Source: an uncultured Chloroflexia bacterium (GTDB lineage Bacteria > Chloroflexota > Anaerolineae > CG2-30-64-16). Taken from it: a stretch of 64,000 bases of DNA. Position 1 is the first letter of the stretch; each line of letters starts with the position of its first letter. This document shows, in pieces, positions 1 through 62,840 of the stretch. The position numbers and the translations under genes were made by a program. Below the pieces are notes generated by a model. That model worked only from the letters and a program-made list of their open reading frames with translations, had not been told where the DNA came from and made no database searches. The DNA is taken from positions 96,001 to 160,000 of the forward strand of contig CAWEMM010000011.1 in assembly GCA_963810095.1 (NCBI GenBank), in the 5' to 3' direction.

Positions 1-3000
1 TTCCGGTTCTGATAACGCAGTCCATGCTCAGGGATCGGGCGGTGAAGCTCGTTGTCGAACGCCCCGAGCTAGTCCTGATCCAGATGGATGCCGACGCGCC
101 GCAGCTGGCGTCGCGAAGCACAATGCCGCCCCCCGTTACAGTGAAGCCGGCGAACCTGGCCTACGTGATCTATACGTCAGGATCGACCGGGATCCCGAAA
201 GGGGTTTCGATCCAGCAGCGCGCCATCGCCCGCTTGATCTTCAATACGAACTACATCGACCTGCAGCCGGGCGACAAGATCGGGCAAATTTCCAATGCAT
301 CGTTCGATGCCGCTACCTTCGAGATATGGGGCTCGCTGCTGCGCGGCGGGGAGCTAATCGGGGTTGACAAGGAGACGGCGTTGTCGCCGGGCGCGCTCGC
401 AGCCTACCTGCGCCGCAGCGGGATCGGGATCATGTTCCTGACCGCCGCACTCTTCAACTACGTCGCTTCAGAGGAACCGACCGCCTTCAACACGATGAGC
501 TGCCTGATGGCGGGCGGCGAGGCCCTAGATCCTAGATGGGTGCGCCGAGTACTCGAGCACGGCGGACCGGCTCGCTTGCTGAATGGGTACGGGCCGACGG
601 AGAGCACGACATTTGCCACCTGGCATCCCATTTCCGAGGTGCCGCCGGACGCCCTGGGCGTGCCGATCGGAAGGCCCCTCTCGAACACGCAGGTCTATGT
701 GCTGGACCGTCACTTCCGCCCGGTCCCGATTGGTGTGTCTGGCGAGCTATGCATTGGCGGCGACGGGCTGGCGGTTGGCTACCTGAACCGGCCCGAGTTG
801 ACCGCAGAAAAGTTCGTGCCCAACCCGTTCGACGGCCACGATGCCCCGCGCCTCTACCGGACGGGCGACCTCGTGCGGTGGCTGCCAAATGGCAGCATCG
901 AGTTCCAGGGGCGTATCGATCACCAGGTAAAGATCCGCGGGTTCCGCATCGAGCTCGGCGAGATCGAGACCATGCTGGGACGCCACCCGCAGGTGCGCCA
1001 GGCGTTTGCGATGGTCAGCCCCGGCAACCTGGTGCAGGATGCATCGGGTGCGGGCGCGGACACGATCAGTTCGACAGAGCGCAAGATCGTGGCGTGCATT
1101 ATGCCGAAAGAGGGCGCAGCTGCGCCCAGCACATCAGACTTGCGCAGCCACTTGAAGCAGCATCTGCCCGACTACATGATCCCCGCTGCGTTTGTGCTCC
1201 TGGACGAGCTCCCGATCAACCCCAACGGCAAGGTTGACCGCGGCGCCTTACAGCGCATCGCACTGCAAGCGCTGAGCTCCGGTCCGGCCGAATCCGAGCG
1301 GGCATACGTCGCACCGCGCAGCCCGGTCGAGCGCTTCCTGGCCGAAAAGTGGCAGGAAGTGCTCGGCGTCGAGAAGGTGAGCGTCACCGACAACTTCTTC
1401 GAGCTGGGCGGCAACTCGCTGCAGGCCGCGGTGCTGACGAACCGGATGCAGGAGGAACTCGGCGCCAGCGCGCACGTGCGCGCGCTCTTCATGGCGCCTA
1501 CGATCGCCGACCTGGCCAACTACCTGGACGAGTATTACCCGGACGCGGTGGCGCGCATCGCCGGCATCGGCGTCGTCCCTGCGGCCAAGCGCGAACCCTC
1601 CGGCCCTGGTACCGGTGGGGCAAGCGCGGAGGGCGTTGGAACTGCGGGTGCGTCGGCTTCGCCCGCCGCCTACACCTTCCAGGAAAAGGTGCGCGCCGCG
1701 CAGGTGGACGATGCGAAGGTGGCACAGTTCGGACAGATCGTGCCGCCGCTGCCCGCTCGCGGCGAGAGCCCGCTCGAGATGACCGACCGGAACCCGCCGG
1801 CCGTGTTCGTCCTGTCGCCGCCGCGCTCCGGCTCCACGCTGCTGCGCGTGATGTTGGCCGGGAACCCGCAGCTCTTTGCGCCGCCTGAGCTCGATCTCAT
1901 GTCCTTCAACACGCTCGCCGAGCGCCGGGATGCCTTCTCCGGGAAGTTCCAGTTCTGGCTCGAAGGCCCGCTGAAGGCAATCATGGAACTGCGGCAGTGC
2001 AGCGCGGACGAAGCAGAGTCGATCATGGCCAGTTTCGAGCGCGCGGGTTGGTCGACCAAACGCTTCTACCGACAACTACAGGAGTGGATCGCGGAATCAC
2101 AGCGCGCGGCGAACTCCGGTCTCCCGGTGTCGCAGCGGATGCTGGTCGACAAGACCCCCGTCTACCCCATGGACCGCCACATCCTGGCCCGGATGGAGCA
2201 GGACTTCGAGAACGCCCGCTACATTCACCTGGTGCGGCACCCGTTCGCGACCGTCTACTCCTTCATGGAAGCCAAGCTGGAAGACATCTTCTTCCGGTGG
2301 GACCACCCCTGGAGCATGCGGGAGTTGGCCGAGCTGGTTTATCTCGTCAGCCATCGCAATATCCTCAACTTCCTGGAACAGATCCCGGCAGAGCGCCAGC
2401 ATCGCGTGTGGTTCGAGGAGATGGTCGGGGATGCGCCGCGCGTAATGCGCGGTATCTGCGACTTCCTGCAGATCGAGTTCCATCCCGATATGCTCGAGCC
2501 GTACAAGGGCGACAAGATGACCTCGGGCATCCGTCCGGGGCACCAGATGGTCGGCGACTTCAAGTTCTACCTGCGGAACAAGATCGATCCGAAAGCTGCC
2601 GATCGGTGGAAGCGTTTCAAGAAGGACGATCGGCTGGCCGAGCAGACCTGGGACGTCGCGCGGCGGCTCAATTACGAGTTGCCGGCAGACGAAGAAGGCG
2701 GGGAGTCCGCAGCCGGGTCGACGAACGGCACGGGGCACAACCAGAACGGTGCACAGAACGCGCCTATCCGCCGCCGGGGTGCGGACGAGCCGCCCGTGCT
2801 CTCCTTTGCGCAGGAGCGGCTGTGGTTTCTCGACCAGTTCGAAGGGGCCGGTGCTAATGGCGGAGGCAGCCCATTCTACAACGTGCCGGCGGCTGTGCGG
2901 CTTACGGGAAACATCGACGTAGGTGCGCTGCGGTGGGCTCTGAACACGATCGTGCAGCGCCATGAGGTGCTGCGCACAACCTTCGCCTCGGTCAACGGCG

Positions 3001-6000
3001 TCGCGTCGCCGGTCGTGGCAGAGCACCTCGAAGTCGAGCTGTCCGTGGTCGACCTGGCCTCGTTGCCCCAGGAGATGCGGGAAGTGGAGGCAGGGCGACT
3101 GGCGGCCGAAGAAGCGCGCCGGCCCTTCAACCTGGCGACGGGGCCCCTGCTCCGGGCGACGCTGCTTGACCTGGGAACGAGCGAAAACGGGCGCGAGACG
3201 GTCGCTCTCATCACCATGCACCATATCGTGTCTGACGGCTGGTCAGTCAATGTGTTCATCAGAGAGCTCGCGGCGCTGTACGGCGCGCACACGTCGGAAG
3301 CACGCCCGGGCCAGCCGGAGAATACGGCAGTTTTGCTGCCGCTGCCGATCCAGTACGCGGACTTCGCTGCCTGGCAGCGAAACTGGTTTGCAGGCCATGA
3401 CGACGCACACGCTGGCGGATCGCGGCGTTCGCCGCTGCAAGACCAGCTGGACTACTGGATAGAGCAGTTGAAGGGCCTGCCGGCCCGGCTGGACCTGCCG
3501 ACTGACCGGCCGCGGCCGGCAGTGCAGACGCTGAACGGCGAGCGCTACACCTTCACCCTGCCGGAGGAACTGACGGGGCGCATCAAGGCGCTCGCGCGCA
3601 GCGAGGGCGTAACCCTGTTCATGACGCTCCTGGCCGCGTTCCAGACGCTGCTGATGCGCTACACGGGCGAGGAAGATCTTGCCGTGGGCACCCCCATCGC
3701 AGGCCGCAACCGGCCCGAGATGGCGAACCTCATCGGCTTCTTCGTCAACACCCTGGTCATGCGCGGCGACCTTTCGTCTGCGCCCGGCGAGGCGCCGCTC
3801 ACCTTCCGCCAGTTGCTCAAGCGCACGCAGGCGACGGCGATCAAAGCCTTTGCGAACCAGGACGTGCCGTTCGAAACCCTGGTCGATACCCTGCAGCGGC
3901 AGGGCGCTCAACCCCAGCGCGACATGAGCCACACGCCACTCTTCCAGGTCATGTTCGCACTGCAGGATGCGCCGCTCCAGGCCATGCACGCGCCGGGCCT
4001 CACCCTCAGCCCGCTGCAGCCCGACACAAAGACGGCGAAGTTCGACCTGATGCTCAACGTGGTCGAACGGACCGACGTCCTGCGCTGCGCGCTCGAGTAC
4101 AACACGGACCTGTTTCGCGCCAGCACCGCCGTCCGGATGGCCCAGCACCTGCAAGTCCTGCTCCAATCGATCGTGTCTGACCTGCCGCGGCAGGGTCCAG
4201 ACACGCCGCTGGCGACGCTGCCGGTGCTCACGCCGGCCGAGCGGCAGATGATGCTGGCCGACTGGAACGACACGCGCACCGACGTGGATACGGGCGATAC
4301 GCTTGCCGCCCGATTCGAGGCGCAGGCGCGGAAGACGCCCGAGGCGCAGGCCGTGATCGCCGAGGTTGAACAAGGCGGCGCGGGCCATTCAACGTCGCTG
4401 ACTTACGCCGAGCTGGATGCCCGGGCCGGAGCGCTCGCCAAGCACCTCGCCTCGCTGGGTGTGGGCCCGGAGAGCATCGTAGGCTTGATGGCCGATCGCT
4501 CGCTCGATCTCCTGGTCGGGGTCGTCGGCATCTGGAAGGCAGGGGCCGCGTACGTGCCGCTCGATCCGGCATATCCCCCGGACCGGCTCGCATACATGCT
4601 CTCGGATTCCGGCGCACGGGTGCTGGTCACCCAGGCGCAGCACGCGCGGCCCGAGGTGGTGGACGATCTGGCAGTCGTCCTGCTCGACTCCGACGCATTA
4701 GGGGTTGCCGGCTCCACATCCGCCGAAACATCGGGGAGGCATGCTGCGCCCGACAACCTGGCCTACGTCATCTACACGTCGGGCTCGACAGGACGGCCGA
4801 AAGGGGTGTCGGTCACCCATCGCACTGCGCTCAACCTGGCCGCCGCGCTGCAGCGAGCCGCGTACGCCGAGCATGGTGACGAGCGGCCCCTGCGCCTCAG
4901 CCTGAACGCGCCGCTGTCGTTCGACGCGTCGGTCCAGCAGCTCGTGATGTTGACGCTAGGTCACACGCTGGTCGTCGTGCCCCAAGACGTGCGCGCGGAT
5001 GCCCCGGCGCTGCTCGCGTTCATCCGCCGCCAGCGCCTGGACCAACTCGACTGCGTGCCGTCGCAGCTCAAGCTGCTGCTCGAGGAAGGACTCCTGGCGG
5101 AGGATGCCGAGTGGCGGCCGTCCATCGTTTTCCCGGGCGGCGAAGCCATCGACGAGCCAACGTGGGCGACGCTGGCCGCCGCGCCCGAGACGCGCTTCTA
5201 CAACATGTACGGCCCGACCGAGTGCACGGTCGACTCGACCACGATCTCGGCTCATGTCGCGCCACGCCGACCCACGATCGGCCGGCCGTTGGCCAACGTT
5301 CGAGCCTACGTCCTCGACCGCAACCTGGAGCCCGCGCCCATTGGCGTGCCCGGCGAGTTGTACCTTGCCGGCGCGGGCGTCTCGCGCGGCTATCTCCACC
5401 GGCCCGATCTCACCGCGGAACGCTTCCTGCCCGACCCGTTTGACGCGCAGGAGACTCCGGGATTTGGGGCCGGCCGCATGTATCGCACGGGCGACCGAGT
5501 GCGCTGGTTACCCGACGGCACGCTTGAATTCCTGGGCCGCGTCGACTTCCAGGTGAAGGTGCGCGGCTTCCGCATCGAGCTAGGCGAGATCGAGGAGGCG
5601 CTGCGGTCACACCCTGGGCTCGCCGAAGCTGTCGTCCTGGTTGCCGAAGACGCGGGGCCCGCCGACGAAGGCATGTCGGGCACGAAGCGCTTAGTCGCGT
5701 ACGTCGTCCCGCGGACCGGCTCGGCAGCGGCGACGCCATTGAGCACGGCCGACCTGCGGCGTCACCTCCTCACCTCGCTGCCCGAATACATGCTTCCTTC
5801 TGCGTTCATGCTGCTCGATGCAATGCCGCTGACGCCGAACGGCAAGCTTGACCGGAAGGCGCTGCTGAAACTGTCGCCCGACGAAGCGGTGCGGACCGAA
5901 ACCGGCACGAGCTATGTCGAGCCGTCCGGCTTCGTGCAGACAACCCTGGCCGAGATCTATGGCCGGGTGCTCGGACTCGAGCGGGTCGGAATCAACGACA

Positions 6001-7668
6001 ACTTCTTCGAGTTGGGTGGGGATTCGATCCTTACCATCCAGGCCGTCGCCCACGCTGGCCAGGCAGGCATCACCATCACGCCGAAGCAGATCTTCCAAGC
6101 GCCGACCGTCAGCCAGTTGGCGCTGCTCGCCGAGGCGAGCGCGGCCGCCGGCGAGGCCGGCGTAATGGCGGACGAGCAGGGACCGGTGGAGGGTGACCTC
6201 CCCTTGACGCCCATCCAGCACCGCTTCTTCGAGACCGGCTTCGCACAGCCGCATCACTGGAACCAGTCGCTGCTGCTGGCGGTGCAGGCCCAGATCGATC
6301 CGAAGAGCATGCGGGACGCGGTCGCCGCGGTGCTCGGCCAGCACGACGCGCTCCGGCTGAGGTTCGCCGTGGTCGACGGCCAATGGCGTCAGTGGAATGC
6401 CGGCCTCTCGGACGACGTCCCATTCGAGAGCATCGACCTCTCGGCGCTCGACGAACCGGCTCGGGGCGAGGCATTGCGCGAGCACACTCTGCGCCTCCAG
6501 CAAAGCCTGAACGTCAGCCATGGGCCGCTCCTGCGGGTCGCATACTTTGACTTCGGCCCCAACGCGGCCGGGCGGCTGTTGACCATCGTCCACCACCTGG
6601 CAGTGGACCGGGTCTCCTGGCGGCTCATTCTGGAGGACCTCGGCTCGGCCTATGAACAGGCCTGCAGCGGCCGCGCGCCGCAGCTGCCGCGGAAGACGAC
6701 AGCCTTTCGCGACTGGGCCCGGCGGCTGGCAGAATACGCCGGATCGTCCGGCGTCGCGGCAGAAGCGAAGCGGTGGATGCAGTGGGGCGGGCAGGCCCTG
6801 CCCGCAGCGGAGGCGGCGCCCGTACCCTGCGATTACCCGGCGGGGAGCAACCTTGAAGCCGATGCGCGCACCGTCGCGGTCTACCTGAATGAAGCCGAGA
6901 CGGGAACGCTGATCCAAGAAGCCGGAAAAGCGTACGGGACCGAAGTGAGCGACGCGCTCCTCACCGCGCTCGGCCATGGCCTTCCGCCGCTGGACGGGCT
7001 CGCCCGCGTGCCTGGTGGAAGTCGAAGGCCACGGCCGCCAGGCGGAACTCGTCGGCGCATCGCTCGGAAACGGCGGCGAGAGCAAAATCAACCTCGCGCG
7101 CACGGTCGGTTGGTTTACATCCGTATACCCGGTCCTGCTGCAGATTCCGCCGCACGACGAGCCCGGCCAGGCGTTGATGGCCGTCAAGGAGCAACTCCGC
7201 GCCACGCCGAACGGTGGGATCGACTACGGGGTGCTCCGCTACCTGTCCACTGACCCGCACATCACGGCGGTCATGCAGGGCTTGCCGCGACCCCAGATCA
7301 GCTTCAACTACCTGGGCCAGTTCATCCAGGAAACGACTGAGGCGGCGTTCGGCAGCGCGGTGTTCCGGCCCGCGCCGGAAAACAGCGGACCCGACCACGC
7401 CGCGGAGCACCAGCGGCAGTATGCGCTTGACGTGACAGTGAGCGTATTTGCCGGCAAGCTTCGGGTCGAGTTTACGTACAGCGATGCGCAATTTGCCCCG
7501 GAGACGGCCGAGACTCTCGCGGACTTCTATGTCGACGCGCTCCGCGGCTTGATCCAGCACTGTCTTTCCCCCGAGGCCGGAGGATACACCGCATCGGACT
7601 TCGCCGACACCGGCTTGAGCGACGAAGGGGTGCGGGATTTGTTGGCAGAGCTCGGCGAGATCGACTGA
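1..7668 (+). CDS. NRPS gene 1 (5'-truncated by window): A(partial)-PCP-sulfotransferase-C(LCL)-A-PCP-E-COM; one apparent 1-bp frameshift at ~6975
   Basis: Frame is open from position 3 (PVLITQSMLRDR), so ATG 24 is not the real start. Motifs: [28 protein letters not shown]; PCP DNFFELGGNSL; ST PRSGSTLLR; C HHIVSDGWS; second A; PCP GGDSI; E domain PLTPIQ..HHLAVD. The E domain continues in ORF 6976..7668 (VEGHGR, RTVGWFTSVYP, FNYLGQF, TASDF). Confidence 0.95.
1791..2686 (+). other. Embedded PAPS-dependent sulfotransferase domain (CurM/OLS-type) between PCP1 and C2
   Basis: VFVLSPPRSGSTLLRVMLAG..LFAPPEL (5'-PSB loop), LVDKTP, YIHLVRHP (3'-PB), NILNFLEQIPAERQH, ending LNYELP. These motifs occur in the same order as in the CurM sulfotransferase as I recall it. 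Confidence 0.9.
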
Positions 7669-7693: not shown

Positions 7694-14469
<6,776 letters not shown>

Positions 14470-14473
<4 letters not shown>

Positions 14474-17400
14474 TGGAGTTGCCGGACAACTTCGCCGACC
14501 TCACGCCAGAACAGCAAGAGCTCCTGGCGCTGCTGCTGGCCGAACAAGGCGTCGAAATGTACGACTCCGCCCTTGCTCCGCGGAAGCAGCCCGGCGAAGA
14601 CGCGCCGTTGTCCTTCTCACAGGCAAGGCTCTGGTTCCTCGACCAACTGGAGCCGAACAGCCCGATGTACAACATGCCAGCCGCGGCCCGGTTGCACGGT
14701 ACTTTGTCTGTTCCGGTCTTGCAAGCCTGCCTGGATGAGATCGCGGCGCGGCATGAGGTGCTGCGGACCATCTTCGTGCGCGGCGATGACGGCCAGGCCG
14801 TGCAGCATATTCTTCCCGAGCTTCACGTGCCGATCACCACGGCCGACCTGAGCGGACTCGCTGCCGCTGCGCAGGAGCAAGAGATTCTCCGATTGGCTTC
14901 GGCAGAGATTCAGCGCCCGTTCGATCTGGCCCGCGGCCCGCTGCTCCGCGTCATGCTGTTGGTGTTGTCCGAGAGCGACGTTCTGCTGCTGCTCAACATG
15001 CACCACATCATCACGGATGGGTGGTCAGTCGGTGTCTTCCTCCGAGAGTTAGGCGCACTTTACGGGGCCTTCGCCAAGGGACGCCCTTCGCCTTTGACCC
15101 CGCTGCCGCTGCAATACGGGGATTATGCCCTTTGGCAGCGCGAGAGTCTGCGGGGCCAGACCCTGGAGCAGCAACTGGCGTATTGGCGTGAAGCACTCCG
15201 TGATGCACCGGCAGTCCTCGAGCTGCCGCTCGACCGGCCGAGACCCCCCGTGCAGACACACCGCGGCGCGGCCCTGGACGTCACTATCGGGGCTCCCGTG
15301 CAGGCCGCTTTGAATCAACTCGCTCAATCCGAAGGCGCCACGCTCTTCATGACCCTGCTGGCCGCTTTCCAGGTGTTCTTATCGCGCTATTCTCGCATGT
15401 CAGACGTCTGCATAGGCACCCCGATTGCGAACCGCACCCGGGGCGAGCTGGAGGGACTGATCGGCTTCTTTACGAACACCCTGGTAATTCGCGCCCGCAT
15501 CGCGCCTGGCATGACCTTCCGCCAGTTCCTGCGAAGCGTTCGCGATGCGACGCTGGCCGCCTACGAGCACCAGGACGTTCCGTTCGAGCAAATCGTCGAG
15601 GCCGTACATCCCGAGCGCACCATGAGTTACTCGCCGCTGTTCCAGGTGATGTTTGCGCTTCAGAACGTGCCTCAGCAGGCCGTCGAGCTCCCCGGCATCA
15701 GACTTAGTTCGGCATCATTCCCCAGCGTTACGGCGAAGTTCGACCTCACATTGAATCTCGGCGAGCGCGGAGACGGTATCGGCGGCAGTATCGAGTACAA
15801 CTTGGACCTGTTTGACGAGACGACGGTCCAGCGGATGATTCAAAACCTGGGAGTCTTGATCGAAGCGGTGGCGATCGATCCCGACCAGGCCGTCGGCGCC
15901 CTGCCGATTATGACGCATACGGAACGCGCGCTCGTGATGGACGCGTGGAACGATACCGCGATGGCCTTCCCCGCCGATACGACGATTCATGCGCTCATCG
16001 CGGAATGGGCCGAGCGCACGCCAGACGGCGTGGCCGCAGAGTTTGCCGAACTGACCGAGCAAGGGCTCCGTACCACGCCCCTCACGTACCGCGAGCTTCA
16101 CGACCGGGCCAACCGCCTCGCCCACCATCTGCGACAACTTGGCGTCGGCACAGATGCGGAGCGAAGCAGCACATTTGTCGGGTTATCCGTGACGCGCTCG
16201 CTCGAAATGGTTGTGGGCATCCTGGGCATCCTCCGAGCCGGCGGCGCGTACTTGCCGCTGGACCCCGGCTACCCGGCCGACCGCCTCGCCTTCATGATCG
16301 CAGACTCGGGAACCCGCATTCTGGTCACAGAAGGGGCGATTGCCTCCCGGCTGCCCCTATCCGGCGCGGGAGTTCCGCCTGACCTGGCCGTCGTACGGAT
16401 TGACGAGGACTGGAACGAGATCGCTGCCCAGCCCCCCACCGATCCCCACGCTGCCGTGGGACCCGACGATCCCGTCTACTGCATCTACACGTCCGGTTCG
16501 ACGGGCCGGCCCAAGGGCACCCCCGTCCGCCACCGCAGCATTTGCAGCCTTGCCACGGCCGCCGCGCGCGACTTTGACATGGCTCCCGGCAAGAGAGTTC
16601 TGCAGTTCGCCGCGTTCTCCTTCGACGCGTCTGTCTGGGAGACCACGATGGCGCTGCGCAACGGCGCCACGCTGATCTTGGCCAGGCAGGAAGTCCTCGC
16701 TTCGGGGCCTGAGCTGCTCCGGCTACTCAAACTTGCCCGCATCACCACCGTCATTCTACCTCCCGCGCTCGCAGCCGTGCTGGAGCCGGTCCCGCTGCCC
16801 GACCTTACCACGGTGCTGTGCGGGGGCGAGCGGGTCACAAATCAGATGGTGCGGCGATGGGCCCCGGGGCGGCGCTTCATAAATGCGTACGGCCCGACTG
16901 AGACAACGGTGTGCGCAACCATGCGCGTCTGCCACGAAACAGAGGTGTGGCCGTTCGGGGGCCCGCCCATTGGACGCCCGGTCGCGAACCTCCGCTGCTA
17001 CGTGGTGGACGATGCCGGTGCGGGTCTGCAGCTTCAGCCGGTCGGAGTGGCAGGCGAGCTGGTTATTGCGGGGGTTGGCGTCTCGCAGGGATATCTTAAC
17101 CGCCCCGAACTGTCTGCCGAACGCTTCATTGCGGAGCTACCGGCCCCGGTCGCCCGTTCTGCGAACGGCGCAGAGGCAGGCCCCATCTCCGGCCCGCTTT
17201 ACCGCACGGGCGACCTCGTGCGCTGGTTGCCCGGCGGCGAGATCGAATACCTGGGCCGGATGGATGACCAGGTGAAGGTGCGTGGGTTCCGCATCGAGCT
17301 TGGCGAGATCGAATCGGTCCTGCGGGGGCATCCCGACGTCAAGGACGGCCTCGTCACTGTGCGCGGCGACGCGCTTGTGGGCTACTACATTCCCAAGGGG

Positions 17401-22654: not shown

Positions 22655-43713
<21,059 letters not shown>

Positions 43714-43714
<1 letters not shown>

Positions 43715-44822
43715 TGGATAACATCATAGGTATCGCCTATCCTGAGTGGCGCGAGCTGCGCCGGGAGGTGAACAGCCTGGACAGCGGACGGGACGGGGTC
43801 GACCCGGACAAGAAGCAGTTAGCCCGCCGCCTGACCATCATGAGCCTGTGGGTGGCGTGGCGCAGCCGGGGTGAAACCCGCATGTTTGGCGAAGCCGTGG
43901 CGAAGACCGAGGTGCCCGACCCTGTCTTCATTCTGGGCCACTGGCGCAGCGGGACCACCCTGCTCCATAATATGATGGCCCTGGACGATCAGTTTGCCTA
44001 CCCCCGCATCTACCAGGTCTCGAACCCACACACCTTCTTGCGCATGCCCATCGAACGCATCGTCGAGCGCCAGAAGCAGACCTCCCAAAAACGAACGCGG
44101 CCGATGGACAACGTCGAGTTTGACCTGATGAGCGCGGCCGAGGACGAGTTCGCCACCTGCCCGATGAGCATCCGCTCGCACATGATCGCATGGTCGTTCT
44201 TACGACAGGAGCCTTTCTACGATCGCTTCCTGACCTTCCGGGAGGCGCCCCGAGAAGACTACGAGAGGTGGCGGAAATCGTTGGTCTGGTTCCTCAAGAA
44301 GGTTGTCTACAAGTACGACTGCTGCCGGCCTTTGCTCAAGTCGCCGCAGCATACGGGGCGAATCCGTTTCTTGCTCGAGCAGTTCCCCAATGCGCGTTTC
44401 GTCCATGTCCGGCGTAATCCGTACGTGGTGTTCCGCTCCACCCAGCGCCTCTACGACACGGGCATCCTGCCGCATGCGTTCCAGTCCTCCCCCGGCCCCG
44501 ACTTCGCCGTCGACGGCATCCTGCGCCGCTACAAGGAGATGTACGATGCCTTCTTCGAAGACCGGGCGCTGATCCCGGCCGGCCACTACACGGAGATTGC
44601 CTTCGAGGACCTCGAACAAGACATGATCGGGACCGTGGCTCGCACGCGTACGATGCAGTAGGCCTGGATGGTTATGCGCAGACAGAGCCAAAGCTGAAGG
44701 CGTTCGTCGCATCACAGAAGGACTACCAGAAGAATAAGCACCCGCAGATCGAAGAAGGGCTGCGCCAGCGCATCTATTCGACGTGGCAGCGGGCCTTCGA
44801 GGAATTCGGCTACCCTGCGTGA
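43714..44822 (+). CDS. Stand-alone sulfotransferase (Sulfotransfer_3/Stf3-like); apparent frameshift at ~44648
   Basis: PVFILGHWRSGTTLLH (PAPS loop), LLKSPQHTGRI, FVHVRRNPY, IAFEDL. After the shift the other frame reads AYDAVGLDG..YQKNKH..FEEFGYPA-TGA (44820-44822). ATG overlaps the NRPS stop (TGATG). Confidence 0.9.
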
Positions 44823-44873: not shown

Positions 44874-46208
44874 ATGCAAGAGCCGCACGACATGCAAGAG
44901 CCCGACAAGCTGTTCAATCGCAACTTTGTGCTGCAGTGGCAGGGCCAGACGATCAGCCGGCTGGGCTCTCAGATATTCATGGCCGGCCTGCTCTTCTGGA
45001 TCAAGGGCGCCACCGGCTCGCCCGCGCTTATGGGCACGATCGCAATGGTCTCCAGCCTGCCTGGCGTGATCCTGATGCCGGTCGGCGGCGCGCTGGCAGA
45101 CCGCTTTCCGCGCCGCGTAATTATCATCCTCGGCGACCTGATTCGGGGCTTGGCGCTCCTCGGACTGACCGCGCTGATGGTGCTGCAGCCTCAAGCCATT
45201 CCCGCCATCCTCGCCGGCCTCTTCATCGTGTCGGTGATCAACGGCATTATCGGTTCGTTCTTCGGCCCCGCGCTGGCCGCCACCATCCCCGATCTCGTCC
45301 CGCAGTCCCGCGTGACGGCTGCCAATTCCCTCGGCCAGCTTTCACTGCAGGGGTCGCTGTTCATCGGGCAGGCCCTGGGCGGATGGCTCTTCGAAATGGT
45401 CGGCGCAGTCTGGCTCTTTCTGATCAACAGCCTCTCGTTCCTGTACTCGTCGGGCAGCGAGGTGCTGGTCAAGATCCCGCAGACCATTCCCGAGCGGAAG
45501 GGCAACTGGCGCGAGCAGTTCCGCACGTTCGGCCGGGAAATCCTGGAGGGCTTCCATTACGTGTGGGCGAAGCCCGGGCTGCGTGAGATGCTCTTCCTGT
45601 CGGCCGCGCTGAGCTTCTTTACCGCGCCCATCCTCGTGCTGATGCCGTTCTACGTTGAGGATACACTGCACGCAACCGCCAGGTGGTACGGGTTCCTCCT
45701 GTCGGGCTTCGCGGTCGGCACGATTCTCGGCTACGCGCTTGCGGGCGTCCTTCGGCTGCGCGCCACCCGCCGGGGCGCGGTCATGATGGTGATCTCCGTC
45801 CTTGTCCCGCTCGGGTTCATCGGCCTGGGTCTGGTCCGCACGACGGGCGCCGCGCTGGCCCTGACCATCCTGGGCGGCCTGGCGACGGGGTATGTCACGG
45901 TGAATATCACCGCCCTGATCCAGGTGACGACCCCCAGCGAGATTCGCGGCCGGGTTGTCGGCCTGCTCGCCGCGCTGTCGAGCGCACTCACTCCGATCGG
46001 CAGCGGGCTTGCCGGCATCGTCGCGGAGTTGCTGGGCAAAAATGTGGCGGTCGTCTTCATTGCGTGCGGCGCGCTCACCGCGGCGGTCGCGGTCTTCCTT
46101 TCGACACGCCGCAGCTACCGGGCTATAATGTCGACCGAGTTCGACCAGGCCCGCCAGCAGCGGCCCAGGCCGTCGAGGCCACCCGAACCAAAGCTGCCGC
46201 CGGCGTAA
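44874..46208 (+). CDS. MFS transporter (DHA3/EntS-like), probable peptide exporter
   Basis: NRNFVLQWQGQTISRLG, GGALADRFPRR (MFS motif A), about 12 hydrophobic segments, TPSEIRGRV. RBS aaggag upstream. Confidence 0.9.
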   Translation: MQEPHDMQEPDKLFNRNFVLQWQGQTISRLGSQIFMAGLLFWIKGATGSPALMGTIAMVSSLPGVILMPVGGALADRFPRRVIIILGDLIRGLALLGLTALMVLQPQAIPAILAGLFIVSVINGIIGSFFGPALAATIPDLVPQSRVTAANSLGQLSLQGSLFIGQALGGWLFEMVGAVWLFLINSLSFLYSSGSEVLVKIPQTIPERKGNWREQFRTFGREILEGFHYVWAKPGLREMLFLSAALSFFTAPILVLMPFYVEDTLHATARWYGFLLSGFAVGTILGYALAGVLRLRATRRGAVMMVISVLVPLGFIGLGLVRTTGAALALTILGGLATGYVTVNITALIQVTTPSEIRGRVVGLLAALSSALTPIGSGLAGIVAELLGKNVAVVFIACGALTAAVAVFLSTRRSYRAIMSTEFDQARQQRPRPSRPPEPKLPPA

Positions 46209-46225
46209 GCGAGACGAAACCACCG

Positions 46226-47002
46226 ATGACCAGCGCAACGCCAAACAAGTTCAATACCTGGATCTCGTGCCCGCGACCCAACGCAGCCGCCCGGGTGCGG
46301 TTGTTCTGTTTCCCTTACTCGGGTGCAGCCGCGAATGTTTTCTATCCGTGGTCCGACGTGCTGCCTGCAACCTGGGAAGTCTGCCCGGTGCAACTGCCCG
46401 GCCACGGAACGCGGCTAAACGAGCCGCTGGAAAAGCGCCTCGCCCTGCAGGTCGAAGCCGCGGCTGCCGGCCTCGCGCCGTACCTGGACAAGCCATACGC
46501 GTTCTTCGGCCACAGCATGGGCGCGCTGCTGGCGTTCGAGCTGACCCGCCACCTGCGCCAGGCCTCGGCGCCCCTGCCGCTCCACCTTTTCGTCTCGGGC
46601 CACCAGGCCCCCCAGCTCCCCGACCGCAACCCGCCGCTGCACGGGCTGCCGCACGACGAGTTCGTCGCCCGGCTGCGCGAGTTGAACGGCACGCCCGAAG
46701 AAGTGCTGAAGCACACCGAGCTCCTGCAATTGCTGGTGCCGATCCTGCGCGCGGACTTCGAGGTCTGCGAGACTTACGTGTATCCATCTGAACCGCCGCT
46801 GTCTGTCCCCATTTCCGCTTACAGCGGCCTGGGCGATGACTATGTGAACCGCGCCGAACTTGACGCGTGGCGCGAGCAGACAACCGGCACGTTCAGCGTC
46901 CGGATGTTTCCCGGCGATCATTTCTACATCAACACCGCGCGCCCGTACCTGCTCCAGGCGCTGGCGCGCGAACTCGAACAGACGCTCGCGACCCGGGCAT
47001 AG
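46226..47002 (+). CDS. Type II (editing) thioesterase
   Basis: [36 protein letters not shown]. The true ATG is at 46226 within ORF 45683..47002. Confidence 0.93.
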
Positions 47003-47064
47003 CACCGCAGCGAGCAATACACCCGTTTTCCGCGCAACTTTATCGTTGCGCAACAGGAGGCAAC

Positions 47065-47286
47065 ATGGGCTGGGACGATCGTGAGGACACCACGGTTTAC
47101 CGGGTGGTCGTGAACTATGAGGAGCAATACTCCATCTGGCCGGTGGACCGCGAGATCCCCGCGGGCTGGCGCGATGGGGGCAAGAGCGGACCGAAAGCGG
47201 AGTGCCTGGCCTACATCAAGGAAGTCTGGACCGACATGCGGCCGCTTAGCCTGCGCAAGCAGATGGATGAGGCGCAAGGGGAGTAG
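47065..47286 (+). CDS. mbtH: MbtH-like protein
   Basis: [39 protein letters not shown] aggagg precedes ATG 47065. Confidence 0.96.
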
Positions 47287-47299
47287 GAAGGGACGGCGG

Positions 47300-48103
47300 G
47301 TGCAGCCGCTTGCTCTGGCTGCATCCGCCCCCGCCGGCACGATGCTGCTTCCCCTCTGGGCGCCGCCAACCCGACTCTTCCCACTTGGACCGGCTGGTCT
47401 CCACCTGTGGCTCGTCGAACTCGAGCTCTCGCCGCACGAGCTCGAGCAGGCGCGCCAGGTGCTCACCGCCGGCGAGGTCGAACGCGCCCGGCGGTTCCAT
47501 TTCGACCATGACCGGCGCCGCTTTGTCGCCGCGCACGCCGCGCTGCGTACGGTCCTGGCGCAGTACGCCGGTCTTGCGCCGCGCCAGCTTGCCTTCCTGG
47601 CCACCCCTCATGGCAAGCCGTACCTCTCCCCCGACGTCAAGTATGCCGTCCCCGACCTGGCGTTCAACCTCTCGCATTCTGGCGAGCTTGCCCTCATCGC
47701 CGTCACCGCCGGTCGCCGTGTGGGCGTCGATATCGAGCTCATCCGGCCCGCGCTGGCCGAGGGCAACATCGCAGAGCGCTTCTTCTCTCCCGGCGAAGCG
47801 TGTGAGCTGGCCGCGCTGCCCGAGCACGAACGAGCCAGCGCCTTCTTCCGCTGCTGGACACGTAAAGAAGCGTTTGTCAAGGCCCGCGGCGAGGGCCTCT
47901 CGCTCCCTCTCGCCAGCTTCGACGTATCCCTGCGGCCCGACCGGCCGGCCGCCCTGCTTCGCACTTCACCAGACCCAGACGAAGCGGGCCGGTGGACCCT
48001 GGATGCTGTGCCTATCGACACCGAAGCGGAGTATGAGGCAGCAGTCGTCGTCGAAGGCCCACTGGCAGAAACGGCCCTCTGGAGGTTTCTTAGAAATACT
48101 TAA
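47300..48103 (+). CDS. sfp: Sfp-type 4'-phosphopantetheinyl transferase (start GTG 47300 or ATG 47342)
   Basis: HGKPYL, FNLSHSG, VGVDIE, FFRCWTRKEAFVKARGEGL. Confidence 0.93.
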   Translation: MQPLALAASAPAGTMLLPLWAPPTRLFPLGPAGLHLWLVELELSPHELEQARQVLTAGEVERARRFHFDHDRRRFVAAHAALRTVLAQYAGLAPRQLAFLATPHGKPYLSPDVKYAVPDLAFNLSHSGELALIAVTAGRRVGVDIELIRPALAEGNIAERFFSPGEACELAALPEHERASAFFRCWTRKEAFVKARGEGLSLPLASFDVSLRPDRPAALLRTSPDPDEAGRWTLDAVPIDTEAEYEAAVVVEGPLAETALWRFLRNT

Positions 48104-48223
48104 GAACCCTCCGTATCCTTCCGCGAATTCCCCCGTTGATGGAGTAAGTAACCGGTTTCAGATGCATTGCAGTTGCAGGCACGCAGACATCGCGGCCGGC
48201 AACGTGTCCCTAAGGAGACGCAG

Positions 48224-48748
48224 ATGGACGAGCACGAGCTCCTTCGCCGCTACCATGCCGGGGAGCGCGATTTCATGGGCGCAAAGCTTGCATTCTCGCA
48301 CCTGTCGGGCAGCAAGCTTCACGGCGCCAACTTGAGCGGGGTAAGTCTTTTCTCGGCGCGCTTGAGCGGCGCGGATCTGGCGGATACGGATCTGCGCGGT
48401 GCAAACCTGACGGGCGCCGAACTCGATGGGGCAAATCTCACGGGTGCGAAGCTGAATGCCGCCTCCCTTACCGGCGCAAATCTCGCCCGGGCCGACCTGC
48501 GGGGCGCGCGCACCGATCTGAGCGCGGCCAACCTGGCCTGGGCCAATCTCGGCGGCGCACGCTTGGCCGCGGCCAACCTGAGCGGGGCCAACCTGACCGG
48601 CGCACAGCTCGCGCATGCCGACCTGAGCGGCGCGGACCTGAGCGGCGCCGATCTTACGGACGCGGTCCTTGACGGCGCGATCCTGCGAGGTGTGAACTTC
48701 GCTAACGCCCGCCTGGCGGGCTCGTCGCTGGCCGGCGCGCTGCGCTAA
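48224..48748 (+). CDS. Pentapeptide-repeat protein (A(D/N)LxG type)
   Basis: MDEHELLRRYHAGERDF followed by roughly 30 A[DN]L[ST]G-like pentads. RBS taaggag. Confidence 0.92.
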   Translation: MDEHELLRRYHAGERDFMGAKLAFSHLSGSKLHGANLSGVSLFSARLSGADLADTDLRGANLTGAELDGANLTGAKLNAASLTGANLARADLRGARTDLSAANLAWANLGGARLAAANLSGANLTGAQLAHADLSGADLSGADLTDAVLDGAILRGVNFANARLAGSSLAGALR

Positions 48749-50538: not shown

Positions 50539-52276
50539 CTAGGGATGGTTTACCACTAGTTGATACGGGCTTGTGGCAGAGAAACCCGAGCCGACGAACA
50601 CGCGGACGTAGTAGTCGCCCGCCGCGCCGTACGCGCCCACCTCGTACGGGGCCGTCGTGTCGGTCATCAAGGTGTTGGCAATGTTGTCATAGTACAACAC
50701 CACCCGCACGGTCTCGCCCACCATGCCATCGACCCGGGCCGTGATTGCGCCGGCTTGGGTCATTTGCACGTGGAAGAAGTCACTTGAGTCGTTGGGCAGC
50801 GCGTAGACCGCTGCATCGCTGGTCAAACCGCCGTTGGCCTGCGTAAGCACATTGTTCGGTTCCGTCTCCCAACTCACCGCAGCACTGCGCACCTCGGACC
50901 AGGGGCTTGTGCCGCCGAAGTTGCGCGCTCGGACGCGGTAGTAGAAGGTGCCGATGCCGCGGCTGGGCATGTGAAACGAGGCGCTCTCGCCGGTATAGAC
51001 GATCTGGGTTGTTCCGGCAAAATCCGCGTTCTGCCCCTGCTCAACTTCGTAGACGTAGGCGTCATAGATCGGCGTCCACGAAATCAGGTAACTCGGACTT
51101 CCACCGGGCGGCTCGATCGCCATGAGTGAAGGCGCCAGCGGTGGCTGCAGATCAGCCGGCAGTTGGAGCACCAGCGGGAGATACACATTGGGCACACGGG
51201 TGGCCTCAGGCGTTCCCGTTTCGGTGGCCGTCGCAGTGGGCGTAAACGACTCGGCCGGAGTGGGGGTATCGGTGGCCGTAGGGCCCTCAGTGGCCGTCGG
51301 GCTCGGCGTGGGCGTCTCCGTTGGGGTTGCGGTGGGCGTAGACGTCACCTCGGACGTCGGCGTATCGGTCGGAGCCGGCGTGGACGTCGCGGCACGCACG
51401 CCGAAGTTGACCACCTTGTTCGTCGGGAAAACCAGGGTGACCGGCACCTGTGTCGGGCTCGTAGCTGCGTAGCCCGCCGGCAGCTGGACGGAGACGGTGT
51501 AGACGCCCGCGGCAGCCGTCGGGAACTCGTAGTAGCCGGCCGCGAAAGTGGTTGCCTGCCTCCGCAGCTTCGGGTCGTCTGGCCGCGGCACCAGGTCCAC
51601 CTTGACACCGCTCACCCCCGACGTCTCGTTGGGGTTACGGATGCCGTCCCCGTTTTGGTCAAGAAATACATGACCGGTCAGCGGAATGACAACCTTGACG
51701 GTGACTTTGTCGGTGCGCGATAACTGGGTCCCGTCGCCATCGACGGCCGTCCAGGTCGCAGTGTTTGTAACATCCTGGAGCAGCGCAGGCGGGAGCCCGG
51801 CGAGACCGATCTGTCCGCTGGGTGGGAGATTGAACACTGCGGGACCCGGGCTGCCCAGCTTGTCGTCGACAAGCGTGTGGGTGATCCACGTCGTAGTCCC
51901 GTTGTTTGTTACGATGTAGCAGTACGCCACCGTCGTGCTGTACCACACGGTCAGCGAGTCGACCGCGCCCACGCACCCCCCCTGCGCGTCAAAGTCCGAT
52001 CGCAGCATGACCTTCTTGTCGAACCGAAAATCGGGTGCCGCGGGCTGGTCGGGCGAAGCCGGGGCCGGTCCGGTTATCCGCCTGCCCCATCCCGAAGGCA
52101 GGCAGCAGACGGAACTCGGTCGAACCCGCCCCGGCCGCGCCGGCCACAGCGTCGGCGAGCGGCCCGGCCGGCCGCGCCGGCGCCGCCAGCACTGCCAGTA
52201 CAAGGGCAGCGGACAGCCCGGCACCCACCAGTATGAGTGTCAGCAAGCCGGCAGTCCGGCGCAATCCGCTTCTCAC
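50539..52276 (-). CDS. Secreted multidomain protein: DUF11-like, SdrD B-like, Pro/Thr linker, YLPL motif, FN3, PPC-like; frameshift near 52070-52110
   Basis: Signal peptide in ORF 51989..52279 (RRTAGLLTLILVGAGLSAALVLAVLA) after RBS gaggagg. Main ORF has YCYIVTNNG, VFLDQNGDGIRNPNE, VYLPLVLQ, YYRVRARN..SPWS, ETEPNN..GDYYVRV. Confidence 0.8.
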
Positions 52277-52306
52277 CAAGCCTCCTCGAGCCGCCGTGCG
52301 CTCAAG

Positions 52307-55300
52307 CTAGCGCTGAATCAAAGGCAGATAGAGCCGCGTCAGGTCCCCATTGAAGACCGAATTGCTGCGCGATTGATAGCTGCCGCCATCGAAAGACCAG
52401 TACGCATAGGCGCCCCGATTTAGAACGCTGACGGAATTCCCCACGGCTCGCGGCGCAGCACCCGCAGGCAGCGGGAGATAGATGTCAGGCACCGGCGGAG
52501 CGAGCGGCGTCTCGGGCGTAGGAGTGTCGGTATCGACCGGCGCCGGCACAGGCGTATCCGTCGGCGTGAGCGTATACGTGGCAGTTGGCGGCTCAGGCGT
52601 GTCGGTCGGCGTGAGCGTGTACGTGGCAGTTGGCGGCACAGGCGTGTCCGTCGGCGTCCACGTCGGTGTCCAGGTGGCAGTGTCCGTTGGCGTCCACGTC
52701 GGTGTCGACGTAGCAGTGTCGGTCGGCGTCCAAGTAGGCGTCCACGTCGGTGTCCAGGTGGCGGTGTCAGTGGGCGTCCAAGTGGGCGTATGGGTGGGCG
52801 TGGGCGTATTCGTCGGGGTGTTGGTCGGCGTGTTGGATGGCGTACTCGTCGGTGTGTAAGTAGGTGTGTTGGTTGGCGTATTGGTCGGCGTCGGCGTCCA
52901 TGCAAGGTAATTCGCAGTGACCGTTACGTCCAGCGTGGACGGCGTGAAGGAAGTCGCCGGCGAAGTGCTGCCCCCAAGACTGCCCGAGGTTGCGGTCCAG
53001 TTATTGAAGTTGAAACCCGTGTTGACCGAGGCCGATATCGCGATCGCGACGCCCGGCTGATACTTCGTGCCGCCGCCGGGGCAGTTGGGCGCACCCACGC
53101 TCACGACACCCGCGCCGAGGGGCGACACCGCCGTCGTCACCGCGACGCATGCCTGGAAGTTCGCTGTGACGCTCTTGTTCGCGCTCATCGAAACGCCGGT
53201 TGGATTCGCGGAGCCGGTAACGTCGCCGCTCCAGCTGCTGAACCCATAGTCCGTCGCAGGGCTGGCCGTCAGTTGCACGAACGTGTTCGGCACATATTTC
53301 GTGCCGCCCTTGCAATTGGGCGCCGGCGCTGCCCCCACCGTCCCTGACCCGCTCGGGCTTACACCCTTGCTGAGGGAATAGCACCCCGCGAAGCGGGCGG
53401 TCAGGCTCTTCTCGCCGTCCATGGTAATCGTGATCGGATTGGCCCGGCTGTCCTGGCTAAGCGGCACGTCGCCGCTCCAGTAGTCGAAGGCGTAATCGTT
53501 CTCGGGCGCAGCCGTGAGCTGGACGACCGTGCCGTACTTGTATTGGCCGGCGGCAGTCGTGCAGTTCGGGGCAACGTTCGCGCTGATCGTGCCCGCACCG
53601 GCCGGCAACACTCCGGACGTGAGCGTAAAGCACGCGTCGATGAAGTTCGCCTGGACCGCCTTGTCCGCGTTCATCGTGATCGTGGTCGGATTTGCCGTGC
53701 CGGTGACGTCGCCGCTCCATTGGTCAAACACGTAGCCGGTGTTCGCGCTGGCGGTCAACGCCACACTCGTGCCCGGCAGGTAACGGTCGCCTCCGCAGTT
53801 CGGCGCGGGGCTCTTCCCGATGGACCCGGCGCCAAACGGACTCGGCGCAGCCGAGAGGATCTTGCACGTATCGTAGTTAGCCGTTACGGTCGAATTCGCC
53901 GTGCCCAGCGTCAGGGTGGTATTGGGCGAGGTGGGTGCGGCCACGCTCCCGCTGCTCGCAGACCACTGCTTGAACACATCGTAGGCGCTGGACGAGCTCG
54001 TGCTGATGTTTACCGTGCTGTTTGGCGCGTATTTCGTGCCGCCGCCGGGGCAGTTAGGCGCGCTATCCACCTTCGCCGTTGCACCGGTTCCGCCCGAAGT
54101 CGCTACGGTGACCCCAACGCACGAGAGGAAGTTGGCGGTGACTGTCTTCGCGGCATCCATCGTCACGCTTGTAGGGTTGGCGGAGACCGACGAGACCGGC
54201 CCGCTCCAATCCTTGAATGCGAAGTCGATCGCGGGCGCAGCCGTGAGGTTCACGACGGTACCCGGGTTGTACATGTTCGTGCCGCCACCCTGGCAGTTCG
54301 GCGCGACGTCACGGTTGACCGCGCCGCCGCCGGCTGGGTTCGATTGCGTCGTCAGGGGAAAGCATGCTGTGAAGTTCGCCGTGACGCTCTTGTTCGCCGT
54401 CATACTGACCGTGACAGGGCTCACGGCGCCGCTCGCATCACCCGTCCAACTGCTGAACTTGTAGCCCGACGCCGGGTTGGCCGTGAGGCTAACGTTCGTC
54501 CCATAGGTGTACTTAGTCGCGTCGGCCGCGCAATTGGGCGCAGGCAACGGCACAACCGCGCCACTGCTCGCCGGGCTCACCGTAGTCGCCAGGCTGAAGC
54601 ACGAGATCTCGAAGAGCGCCGTGACGTTCTTGTTCGCGTCCATCGTGATCGTGACGGGGTTCTTCTTTTGATCCGCAGTCGGAACGTCGCCGCTCCACTG
54701 TTGGAAGGTCTTGCCTGTCACCGGCACCGCCTCGAGGGTCACCGCGGTCCCGGGCAGATAGCGGTCCACACCGCAGTTCGGCGCGGTCTTTACCGAGACA
54801 GAACCGTCAGCCGCAGGCTGAGCCGCGGTCGTCAACGTCTTGCACTCGTCGTAGTTAGCGGTGGCCTTGGCATCAGTCGTGCCCAACGAAAGCGTCGTGT
54901 TCTGGGCGGTGGCGCTGCCGAGCGACCCGCTTGTCGTGGTCCAGTTCTTAAAGAGGAAGTACGCGCTTGCCGGGCTGGTGGTGATGTTCACCTGCGTGTT
55001 GGGCTTGTACTTGGTGCCGCCCTGGCAGTTCGGCGCAGTCGTCACGCTTGAGGTGCCGCCGCCGGTCGGATTGATCGCCGTGGACGCAGCGACACACGCT
55101 TCGAAATCCGCCGTCACCGACCGAGCCGCACTCATGGTCACCGAGGCCGGGCTGGTGCTGCCGGTGACGTCCCCGCTCCAGCTCTTGAAGTTCCAGTTGC
55201 TCGCCGGGCTCGCCGTCAGGTTAACGACCGTGCCCGGGTTGTACAGGTTCGCGCCCCCGCCCTGACAGTTCGGCGCGACGCTGGCGCTCACGGTGCCCGA

Positions 55301-57556: not shown

Positions 57557-57626
57557 GGGCTCCTCCAATAATCTCTACAACGACTGCATGCTCCGACCGC
57601 CACCCCTCGGGAGGACGGCGCGGCCA

Positions 57627-59597: not shown

Positions 59598-59608
59598 GTA
59601 CGTTCCCT

Positions 59609-62007: not shown

Positions 62008-62840
62008 GCGCCGGTCTCCGCCGGGGCTGCTGCCGCCGCCAGCTCCCCGGGGGTCTGGCCCGAGTCGTCAAGGGCAACAAACTGGCCGTCGGCGATGCGG
62101 AGGGTCCGCGTGACGCGCTGTGAAAGGTCGCGATCGTGGGTCACCATGACCACGGTCTTGCCGCCGGCGACCGCCTCGGTGAAGAGATGAAAGACCGCCT
62201 CCGCGGTGCGCGAGTCGAGGTTGCCCGTCGGCTCGTCGGCGATCAGGATAGGCGGGTCGTTGGCCAGCGCCCGGGCAATGGCGACGCGCTGCTGTTCGCC
62301 GCCCGAAAGGGTCGTAGGCAGCTTGTCGGCATGGCGCGACATCTCGACGCGATCGAGGAGGGCCAGCGCACGCTTACGCCGCTCGCGCACCGGATAGGTG
62401 TTGCAGAAATCCATCGGCAGCATGACGTTTTCCGCCACGCTGAGCATGGGCAGGAGCTGGAAAAACTGGAAGACGAGCCCGACGTTGCGCCCCCGCCAGA
62501 CCGCCATCTTCTCTTCGTTAAGGGTGTGCACCGCGGTATCGCCGATGTAGATTTCCCCCGAGGTTGGCCGGTCGATACCCGTCAGCATGTTGATGAGCGT
62601 CGACTTGCCCGAGCCGGATTTGCCGACAATCGCAAGGAACTCGCCGGGGTTGACGCACAGGTCGACACCCCTGAGGGCCATGAAGCTGGCTCCCGCTTCG
62701 CCCGCCCGCGGCCCAAGCGCAAATGTCTTGACGACGTTGCGCACCTCGATGAGGTGGGTGTTGCCATAGCGATAGTGCGGGCCAGCGCCGGCCGCGTCGC
62801 CCTGCGCGCTCGCTGCAGGCTGCCGGGAGTTACGTCGCAC
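62004..62840 (-). CDS. ABC transporter ATP-binding protein (LolD/MacB type)
   Basis: Walker [44 protein letters not shown] start after gaggag. Confidence 0.95.

Follow-up and report, generated by a model that had tools for sequence, protein, structure and literature searches.

An in-line CurM-type sulfotransferase domain of an Asp-type class in a nonribosomal peptide elongation module from Chloroflexota

Sulfotransferase (ST) domains are known from assembly lines of both the polyketide synthase (PKS) and the nonribosomal peptide synthetase (NRPS) type. The STs of CurM and of the olefin synthase (OLS) are activating enzymes (PMC11730487). AerB, of varlaxin and dysinosin B biosynthesis, has a loading module made up of O-methyltransferase, FkbH, peptidyl carrier protein (PCP) and ST domains (OMT-FkbH-PCP-ST), from which a sulfated glycerate is kept in the peptide (PMC10143770), and OciA, of the cyanopeptolin pathway, bears an ST in its starter module and retains the sulfate (PMC2533009). 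Here we analyse an ST domain encoded in a 64,000-nucleotide stretch from an uncultured Chloroflexia bacterium (contig CAWEMM010000011.1, positions 96,001 to 160,000; this whole stretch is called the window below), where it lies between the carrier (T) domain of an NRPS elongation module and the condensation (C) domain of the next.

The window ST and the STs of CurM and OLS belong to the same family and have the same fold, with the PRSGST loop, the PPE glutamate, the VDK lysine and the RHP..S motif in common, and in both settings the ST follows directly in cis after a carrier. However, the hosts differ. In CurM and OLS the ST acts on the acyl carrier protein (ACP) of a PKS module that contains a ketoreductase (KR), and a decarboxylating thioesterase (TE) comes next, whereas the window ST is attached to the T domain of an amino-acid module and precedes a C domain, giving the order A-T-ST-C, where A is the adenylation domain. 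Furthermore, CurM and OLS have a histidine two residues after the PPEL glutamate, where the window ST has an aspartate (hence Asp-type, or D-type), and the window ST carries a 13-residue insertion ahead of VDK relative to CurM. In its fusion behind a carrier, with a C domain next and a chain that continues, the window ST is like AerB and OciA. Their STs sit in the starter module and act on that module's own glycerate, whereas the window ST belongs to elongation module 3 and follows a residue without a hydroxyl; the distinction drawn here is one of architecture.

An intact ST domain in elongation module 3

Window positions 1764–2684 encode an intact CurM-type ST domain fused into the middle of an assembly line. 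Pfam places Sulfotransfer_3 (PF13469) at residues 599–827 of the open reading frame (ORF) at 3–7253 (+), with an E-value of 5.4e-25. In a search against solved structures, the CurM ST (4gbm) aligned to this region over residues 22–311 of its 323-residue chain (E 7.1e-65) and the OLS ST (4gox) matched with E 3.6e-55, the next-best matches being tyrosylprotein sulfotransferases with E near 0.003. We took the domain boundaries from the stretch that the CurM and OLS alignments span. The sole NCBIfam result for the window protein was a sub-threshold match to NoeE. An AlphaFold model of the ST, built with 13 relatives, reached a predicted local distance difference test score (pLDDT) of 83.7 and a predicted template-modelling score (pTM) of 0.84, and Foldseek superposed it on 4gbm with a target-normalised template-modelling (TM) score of 0.94, a root-mean-square deviation of 2.1 Å and 39% identity, and on 4gox with a TM score of 0.93. 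Retinol dehydratase and LGS1 were among the weaker fold matches of the model.

The four motifs named above are identical between the window ST and CurM in the alignment and are invariant or nearly so over 141 in-line STs collected from databases. The signatures of the window ST read PPELDL and VGDFKFY. McCarthy et al. 2012 reportedly assigned active-site roles in the CurM ST to Glu60, His62 and Lys133, a numbering that agrees with our alignment to the window ST. The preliminary description of this DNA had noted the kept glutamate and lysine and the aspartate in place of the CurM histidine, all of which the alignments to 4gbm and 4gox bear out. We rejected a reading of the aspartate as a sign of a degenerate site for the sulfate donor 3'-phosphoadenosine 5'-phosphosulfate (PAPS): the aspartate is found in 15 of the 15 STs of the window's own clade, and the other motifs, those for PAPS included, are all kept. 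The genome encodes an adenosine 5'-phosphosulfate (APS) kinase domain (211 bits), which would supply PAPS, and its only two PF13469 domains both lie inside this cluster. We think it quite likely that the domain is an active in-line ST that acts on the tethered chain.

The ORF at 3–7253 (+) is the C-terminal 2416 residues of a 3049-residue NRPS, and its Pfam matches run AMP-binding, PP-binding (residues 445–508), Sulfotransfer_3, Condensation (residues 933–1418), A, T and an epimerisation (E)-type domain. The features around the ST are as follows.

3–1238 (+): C-terminal end of the module-3 A domain, a domain that begins upstream of the window; code DAFFMGGTFK, Val/Ile-like (Pfam AMP-binding)
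1323–1538 (+): carrier (T/PCP) of module 3, core GGNS (Pfam PP-binding)
1539–1763 (+): T-ST linker rich in Gly, Ala and Pro, about 75 residues, seen in the translation and without a Pfam match
1764–2684 (+): CurM-type PAPS sulfotransferase domain, Asp-type (PF13469, CurM ST match, fold, motifs)
2799–4262 (+): C domain of module 4, LCL-like, with a motif of 10 protein letters (not shown) intact (Pfam, C-domain tree, motif)
4314–6122 (+): A domain (code DAQDFGMVDK, Gln-like) and T domain (GGDS) of module 4 (Pfam, code reading, carrier motif table)
6192–7602 (+): E domain of module 4, interrupted near 6975 by a frameshift

Among solved structures, the closest relative of the module-3 A domain comes from linear gramicidin synthase A (LgrA), whose first A domain, the one matched here, loads Val; because of this and its code, we read the module as Val/Ile-like. 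The C domain after the ST clusters with C domains that follow non-epimerising modules, and the two C domains that follow E domains stand apart (Shimodaira–Hasegawa-like approximate likelihood ratio test, SH-aLRT, 100). It has a normal HHxxxDG motif with no extra His, and it is called LCL-like because of this grouping.

Upstream of the window we found, in order, an AMP ligase of the fatty acyl-AMP ligase (FAAL) type, which is frameshifted, then KS-AT-ACP (KS, ketosynthase; AT, acyltransferase), C-A-T, KS-AT-KR-ACP and C-A-T. NRPS module 1 has the code DASTIAAIGK, which is Tyr-like, and module 2 the code DQENIGAVTK, which we judged basic-like. The KS-AT-KR-ACP module has no dehydratase (DH), and by sequence reading its KR has the NADPH loop and the Lys/Ser/Tyr motifs. 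The line is thus FAAL, KS-AT-ACP, NRPS1, KS-AT-KR-ACP and NRPS2 to NRPS14. Five carriers, a C domain and a Val-like A domain come before the window ST, which is in an elongation module and not in a starter module. The rest of the line and the end of the cluster are listed here.

7694–42898 (+): ten further NRPS modules (A5–A14) with two more E domains and several frameshifts (domain annotation)
42950–43684 (+): terminal TE of the line (Pfam Thioesterase)
43711–44661 (+): stand-alone second ST (PF13469, E 1e-32)
44874–48748 (+): conserved cluster tail with a major facilitator superfamily (MFS) exporter, a type II thioesterase (TEII), a phosphopantetheinyl transferase (PPTase) and a pentapeptide-repeat protein (Pfam, relatives' loci)

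The architecture agrees in every point with the preliminary description, which had proposed a complete CurM-type ST in frame between a PCP and an LCL C domain, a Val/Ile-like module before it, 11 later modules and no decarboxylating TE beside it: Pfam, the structure search and the predicted CurM-type fold support the ST, the code and the LgrA relative the module, and the tree the C domain, eleven A domains lie downstream of the ST, and the sole in-line TE is 40 kb downstream. The stretch it had named, 1300–2830, takes in the carrier, the linker, the ST and the very start of the C domain. The carrier it had called PCP1 is indeed the window's first, but counted along the whole line it comes third among the NRPS carriers.

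Many frameshifts split NRPS and PKS domains in the window (at about 6975, 30020, 34600–35740, 37860–38520, 40605 and 41420–42510), and others lie upstream (983–6016 of locus L009, in the upstream part of the cluster, and 12187–15438 of locus L010); one is at a G5 run. The haem biosynthesis genes hemA, hemC and hemB, upstream of the cluster, are likewise split. Because these essential neighbours are equally affected, we read the frameshifts as probably being indel errors of the assembly and not gene decay, and we rejected a pseudogene cluster as the main explanation. The 3049-residue frame that carries the ST is open.

Classes of in-line STs

The layout is not rare. A protein search with the ST region (lengths 1328–4228 residues, E ≤ 1e-3, 3866 candidates) gave at least 1658 database proteins that match it, and OciA and AerB offer precedents for a retained sulfate. 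In the 120 best-listed of the 1658, one of which is the window's own protein, an ST lies in line between NRPS domains in every case, with T-ST-C in 106 proteins and T-ST-TE in 16. A metagenome scan, of which we analysed the best 80 of 545 confirmed loci, added 88 ST domains, followed by a C domain in 55 and by a TE in 25. Matches were found in 10 of 300 other sampled genomes of the same class (E 1e-30), and a phylum-wide sample of 400 other genomes gave none at E 1e-40 and no extra D-type contexts; the distribution of the domain is sporadic. The nearest named relatives are metagenome-assembled genomes of Anaerolineales and Anaerolineae. Our literature search returned PKS STs, the starter-module STs of OciA and AerB and the context of the stand-alone SulN, but nothing that dealt with STs of NRPS elongation modules (C-A-T-ST); searching for the active-site residues of the CurM ST gave no relevant paper. 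The layout is recurrent but unstudied, and the window instance belongs to a distinct Asp-type class.

The carriers that serve these STs differ from those that serve C domains. In the related loci, none of the 82 carriers that precede an ST has the core GGHS, which is present in 106 of 116 carriers that precede a C domain; the cores before STs are GG[D/N/T/S]S. The window follows the same pattern, with GGNS in the module-3 carrier, GGHS in the window's ten other carriers before C or TE, and GGDS in the two before E.

To compare the STs, we used a protein set of 141 in-line STs from the 120 best-listed proteins and a locus set of 94 STs; the two come from overlapping databases and are not independent. 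Below, L-, G- and P-numbers denote the loci, genomes and proteins of this analysis. Over the 141 STs, the position of the CurM histidine is D in 64, E in 65, A in 6, Q in 6 and H in none. In a FastTree phylogeny of the locus set, all STs of Val/Ile modules, that of the window included, fall into one 15-member clade (support 96), and 76 other NRPS STs lie on the opposite side (clade B, support 94), in sub-clades that track Thr, Ser and Tyr modules; the module labels change 34 times on this tree, against a mean of 59.6 when shuffled. The marker residue is D in 15/15 STs of the window's clade, E in 74/76 of clade B and H in two STs that follow KR-ACP. Three further positions in the flap-like segment also split the clades, VGDFKFY in the D clade against LGDVKFH in clade B. 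A second tree (IQ-TREE quick, 57 rows), to which STs from relatives' genomes were added, recovers the D, H and A/Y types as clades of 16, four and four members (SH-aLRT 99, 100 and 95, respectively). Here the marker state changes seven times, where six is the minimum possible and 23.9 the shuffled mean. H is confined to the clade that holds the PKS-linked STs, four in all, two of them directly after KR-ACP.

The marker also follows the module in which the ST stands. In the protein set, where class tallies by A-domain code use eight of the ten code positions, 44 of the 55 D-type STs with a readable code come after a Val/Ile-like module and the other 11 after Asn-, Gln- and other codes; none comes after a Ser, Thr or Tyr code. 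Such codes precede 37 of 54 Glu-type STs in this set and 46 of the 56 with a readable code in the locus set. All six Ala-type STs of the protein set follow Lys-like codes of the form DAED..T[IV]VK, and an A or Y marker is found after Lys-like codes. One contig, which holds L036 together with L037 (G027:C49), brings three of the types together as KR, ST[H], C-A[DAST..]-T-ST[E], C-A[DAEH..]-T-ST[Q], that is, His after KR-ACP, Glu after a Tyr-like module and Gln after a module with a DAEH code. From these sequence associations, the residue at the CurM-His position appears to mark ST classes: His with KR-ACP, Glu with Ser, Thr or Tyr, Ala or Tyr with Lys-like residues, and Asp with the window clade.

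The Glu-type STs of elongation modules share with the window ST the layout C-A-T-ST-C or C-A-T-ST-TE, a carrier other than GGHS and about 50% identity. However, they form a separate clade with PPEL-E-L and LGDVKFH in place of PPEL-D-L and VGDFKFY, and their own module supplies the hydroxyl. His-type STs (L036, L040) are like the window ST in lying in hybrid PKS-NRPS lines, with a hydroxyl made by a KR as the likely acceptor and a C domain next, but unlike it they keep the CurM histidine, sit on the PKS carrier itself and cluster with L042. The latter (G264:C86), from the same bacterial class as the window, is a classical terminal KS-AT-KR-T-ST-TE module of OLS/CurM type with the His marker. 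The Asp class is the exception from which most can be learnt, since it has no hydroxyl to work on in its own module.

The conserved cassette and the candidate acceptor

The order KR-T-C-A[D.ENIGA.TK]-T-C-A-T-ST is present in all 11 of the D-clade loci with at least 8 kb of upstream DNA (the window, L012, L033, L034, L045, L048, L049, L050, L052, L073 and L093), seven of seven metagenome loci among them, for which the upstream DNA covers up to 10 kb. An upstream KR occurs in only 2 of 41 clade-B loci. The window has the full cassette, KR-ACP-C-A(basic-like)-T-C-A(Val/Ile-like)-T-ST-C-A(Gln-like)-T-E. The code for residue 2, D.ENIGA.TK, is shared by the window, L012, L033, L045, L048–L050, L052, L073 and L093, and that for residue 1, DASTIAAIGK, by the window, G302 and G083, with DASTIAAIG? 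in G301, where nine of ten positions were read. In the protein set there are 46 ST modules of the Val/Ile type, and after 39 of them comes a Gln-like (DAQD) module, which as a rule has an E domain. In L073 the residue of the ST module is Lys-like, with the arrangement T-ST[A]-T-ST[D], and Gln is no longer the residue that follows; the KR and the basic-like module are kept.

A tandem T-ST-T-ST after a Lys-like module is seen at 8720–10850 of L073 and in proteins P0016–P0018, P0020, P0025 and P0028. The first ST of the tandem is Ala-type, on a long branch, and the second is Asp-type.

The KR and basic-like modules upstream are constant, whereas the module of the ST and the one after it vary, and D-type STs never come after hydroxy-amino-acid modules. 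From this we infer an acceptor group that was already put in place at an earlier stage of the chain. In the route proposed here, in which activity, acceptor, timing and the fate of the sulfate are all deduced, the PAPS-dependent ST would act on the peptidyl chain held on the GGNS carrier directly upstream, before the next C domain hands the chain to D-Gln. The target would be a group made earlier on the chain and not the Val-like side chain of the module itself, and the likeliest acceptor would be the secondary alcohol from the KR two modules upstream, in a statine-like unit on the Tyr-like residue. The delay could have a chemical rationale, since by the logic of CurM a beta-sulfated thioester would eliminate readily and a beta-sulfated amide would not. 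Sulfation once the beta-hydroxyacyl thioester has become an amide would thus not lead to elimination, and the sulfate would stay in the product. The stand-alone ST encoded after the TE would add a second sulfate elsewhere. The preliminary description had suggested that the ST acts on a group upstream on the chain, and this is the explanation that we favour, on the strength of the 0/55 D-type STs after Ser, Thr or Tyr codes and of the KR two modules before the ST in 11/11 loci. Taken as a whole, a functional Asp-type ST in elongation module 3, with the KR-made hydroxyl two modules upstream as its acceptor and the sulfate retained, is a tentative proposal to which we give somewhat less than an even chance.

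A number of observations weigh against it. The association with a KR comes from one clade and one inherited cassette, so that the 11 loci, which share ancestry, are not independent. In the hybrid lines of L036 and L040 a His-type ST stands directly between KR-ACP and a C domain, and because such STs solve the problem at the KR-ACP itself it is not obvious why a KR hydroxyl should be sulfated two modules later. The D-type ST of L035 (at 12171) has no KR in its three preceding modules, over about 12 kb to the contig end. Every other marker class correlates with the ST's own module, and by analogy the Asp type might act on its own residue if an enzyme from another part of the genome hydroxylated it. 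The chain also bears other acceptors, namely the Tyr-like residue 1 and the basic-like residue 2. Lastly, the A-domain codes depend on positions that we placed relative to the core motifs.

These two residues are the basis of one alternative, that the ST sulfates the phenol of residue 1 or the side chain of residue 2, possibly as an N-sulfamate. Both are as conserved in the cassette as the KR is, and the Ala-type STs after Lys-like modules suggest that some members of the family handle basic residues. However, Tyr-directed STs are Glu-type and stand in the Tyr module itself, as the Ala-type STs do with their Lys-like modules, so one would expect to find the ST for either residue in that residue's own module, and the stand-alone ST is a more natural candidate for phenols; we regard this alternative as unlikely. 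It could also be that the Val-like residue is beta-hydroxylated on its carrier by an enzyme from outside the cluster and then O-sulfated by the ST of its own module, as the behaviour of all other marker classes and the predominance of Val/Ile-like codes before D-type STs (44/55) would lead one to expect. Yet the Pfam matches of ORFs, over a span that starts 12.5 kb before the FAAL and ends 16 kb past the TE, included no hydroxylase, nor was one found in the conserved tail of five relatives. The 11/55 D-type STs after Asn-, Gln- and other codes do not fit either, and in L073 the D-type ST follows a Lys-like module already served by an Ala-type ST. A hydroxylated Val thus seems to us quite improbable.

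A different outcome would result if the ST were activating, as in CurM, with the sulfate lost on-line by ring closure or by elimination, which would give an alpha,beta-unsaturated, vinylogous unit in place of what the missing DH would make; the product would then carry no sulfate from this ST. The closest characterised relatives, the STs of CurM and OLS, work in this way (PMC11730487), the PKS module has a KR and no DH, and retinol dehydratase and LGS1, which use sulfate for elimination or ring closure, were among the weaker fold matches. On the other hand, no partner domain for elimination is present and what follows the ST is an ordinary C domain, LCL-like and with its HHxxxDG normal, elimination is chemically harder once the unit is an amide, and the NRPS precedents with T-ST-C keep the sulfate (PMC10143770). 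On balance we find sulfate loss improbable here. We think it very improbable that the domain is catalytically dead and is present as a structural spacer or docking element, a reading prompted by the replaced CurM histidine and by the many frameshifts in the surrounding assembly: the PAPS-binding and catalytic motifs are kept and are almost without variation in 141 relatives, the aspartate is invariant in its clade, and the frame is open amid frameshifts that also affect essential haem genes.

Extending the class marker to chemistry, one could imagine a one-residue acceptor code two positions after the catalytic glutamate, in which His would stand for beta-hydroxyacyl-ACP and the other residues for the module types given above, and in which the Asp class modifies a remote position of the carrier-bound peptide and may use the sulfate as a leaving group for a mid-assembly alkene or ring, so doing the work of the DH that the statine-forming PKS module lacks. 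We consider such a code doubtful, and we know of no described ST domain that modifies a remote position of a carrier-bound peptide.

The stand-alone ST, the cluster tail and outlook

The stand-alone ST at 43711–44661 is distantly like the Stf enzymes of mycobacteria (Stf1, 2zq5, E 2e-4). A homologue with 44–80% identity is encoded in all five of the relatives' genomes searched, directly after a TE in G302, G237 and G143; in G083 an E-type domain directly precedes it, and in G301 the ST marks the end of the contig. In G143 it lies on a contig whose in-line ST is Ala-type. An MFS gene follows the stand-alone ST in 5/5 relatives, and TEII and PPTase genes are present in the four with enough downstream DNA. 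The gene for the pentapeptide-repeat protein, at 48167–48748 (+), adjoins that of the PPTase at the cluster end and is in the same place in G302 and G301. Pentapeptide-repeat proteins are known as self-resistance factors against gyrase poisons and gyrase-targeting natural products, and this one may hint at the target of the product. Judging from the two ST genes, the product family probably carries two sulfates.

The closest relative (L148/L149, G302:C17) inserts one more PKS module (KS-AT...KR) after the FAAL and ahead of the KS-AT module, which means that even closely related lines make different lipid tails. Beyond the cluster, over 50539–57568 (-) and 57627–62840 (-), the window encodes two large surface-type proteins of 561 and 1753 residues, with SdrD B-like domains and ten InlB B-repeat matches, followed by a HlyD/MacB-FtsX/ABC export set; these proteins and the export set are probably unrelated to the cluster.

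Uncultured Chloroflexota, Acidobacteriota, KSB1 and other bacteria have many in-line STs in their NRPS elongation modules and, to our knowledge, structure-prediction tools take no account of them. The GG[D/N/T/S]S core could flag ST-serving carriers by sequence and, if the class marker holds, genome miners could predict the sulfated building block in the same way. The two STs and the pentapeptide-repeat protein point to a doubly sulfated lipopeptide family in Anaerolineae, and from the acceptor of the Asp class one could tell whether the STs of assembly lines can reach a distant group or, in peptide lines, have an activating role.

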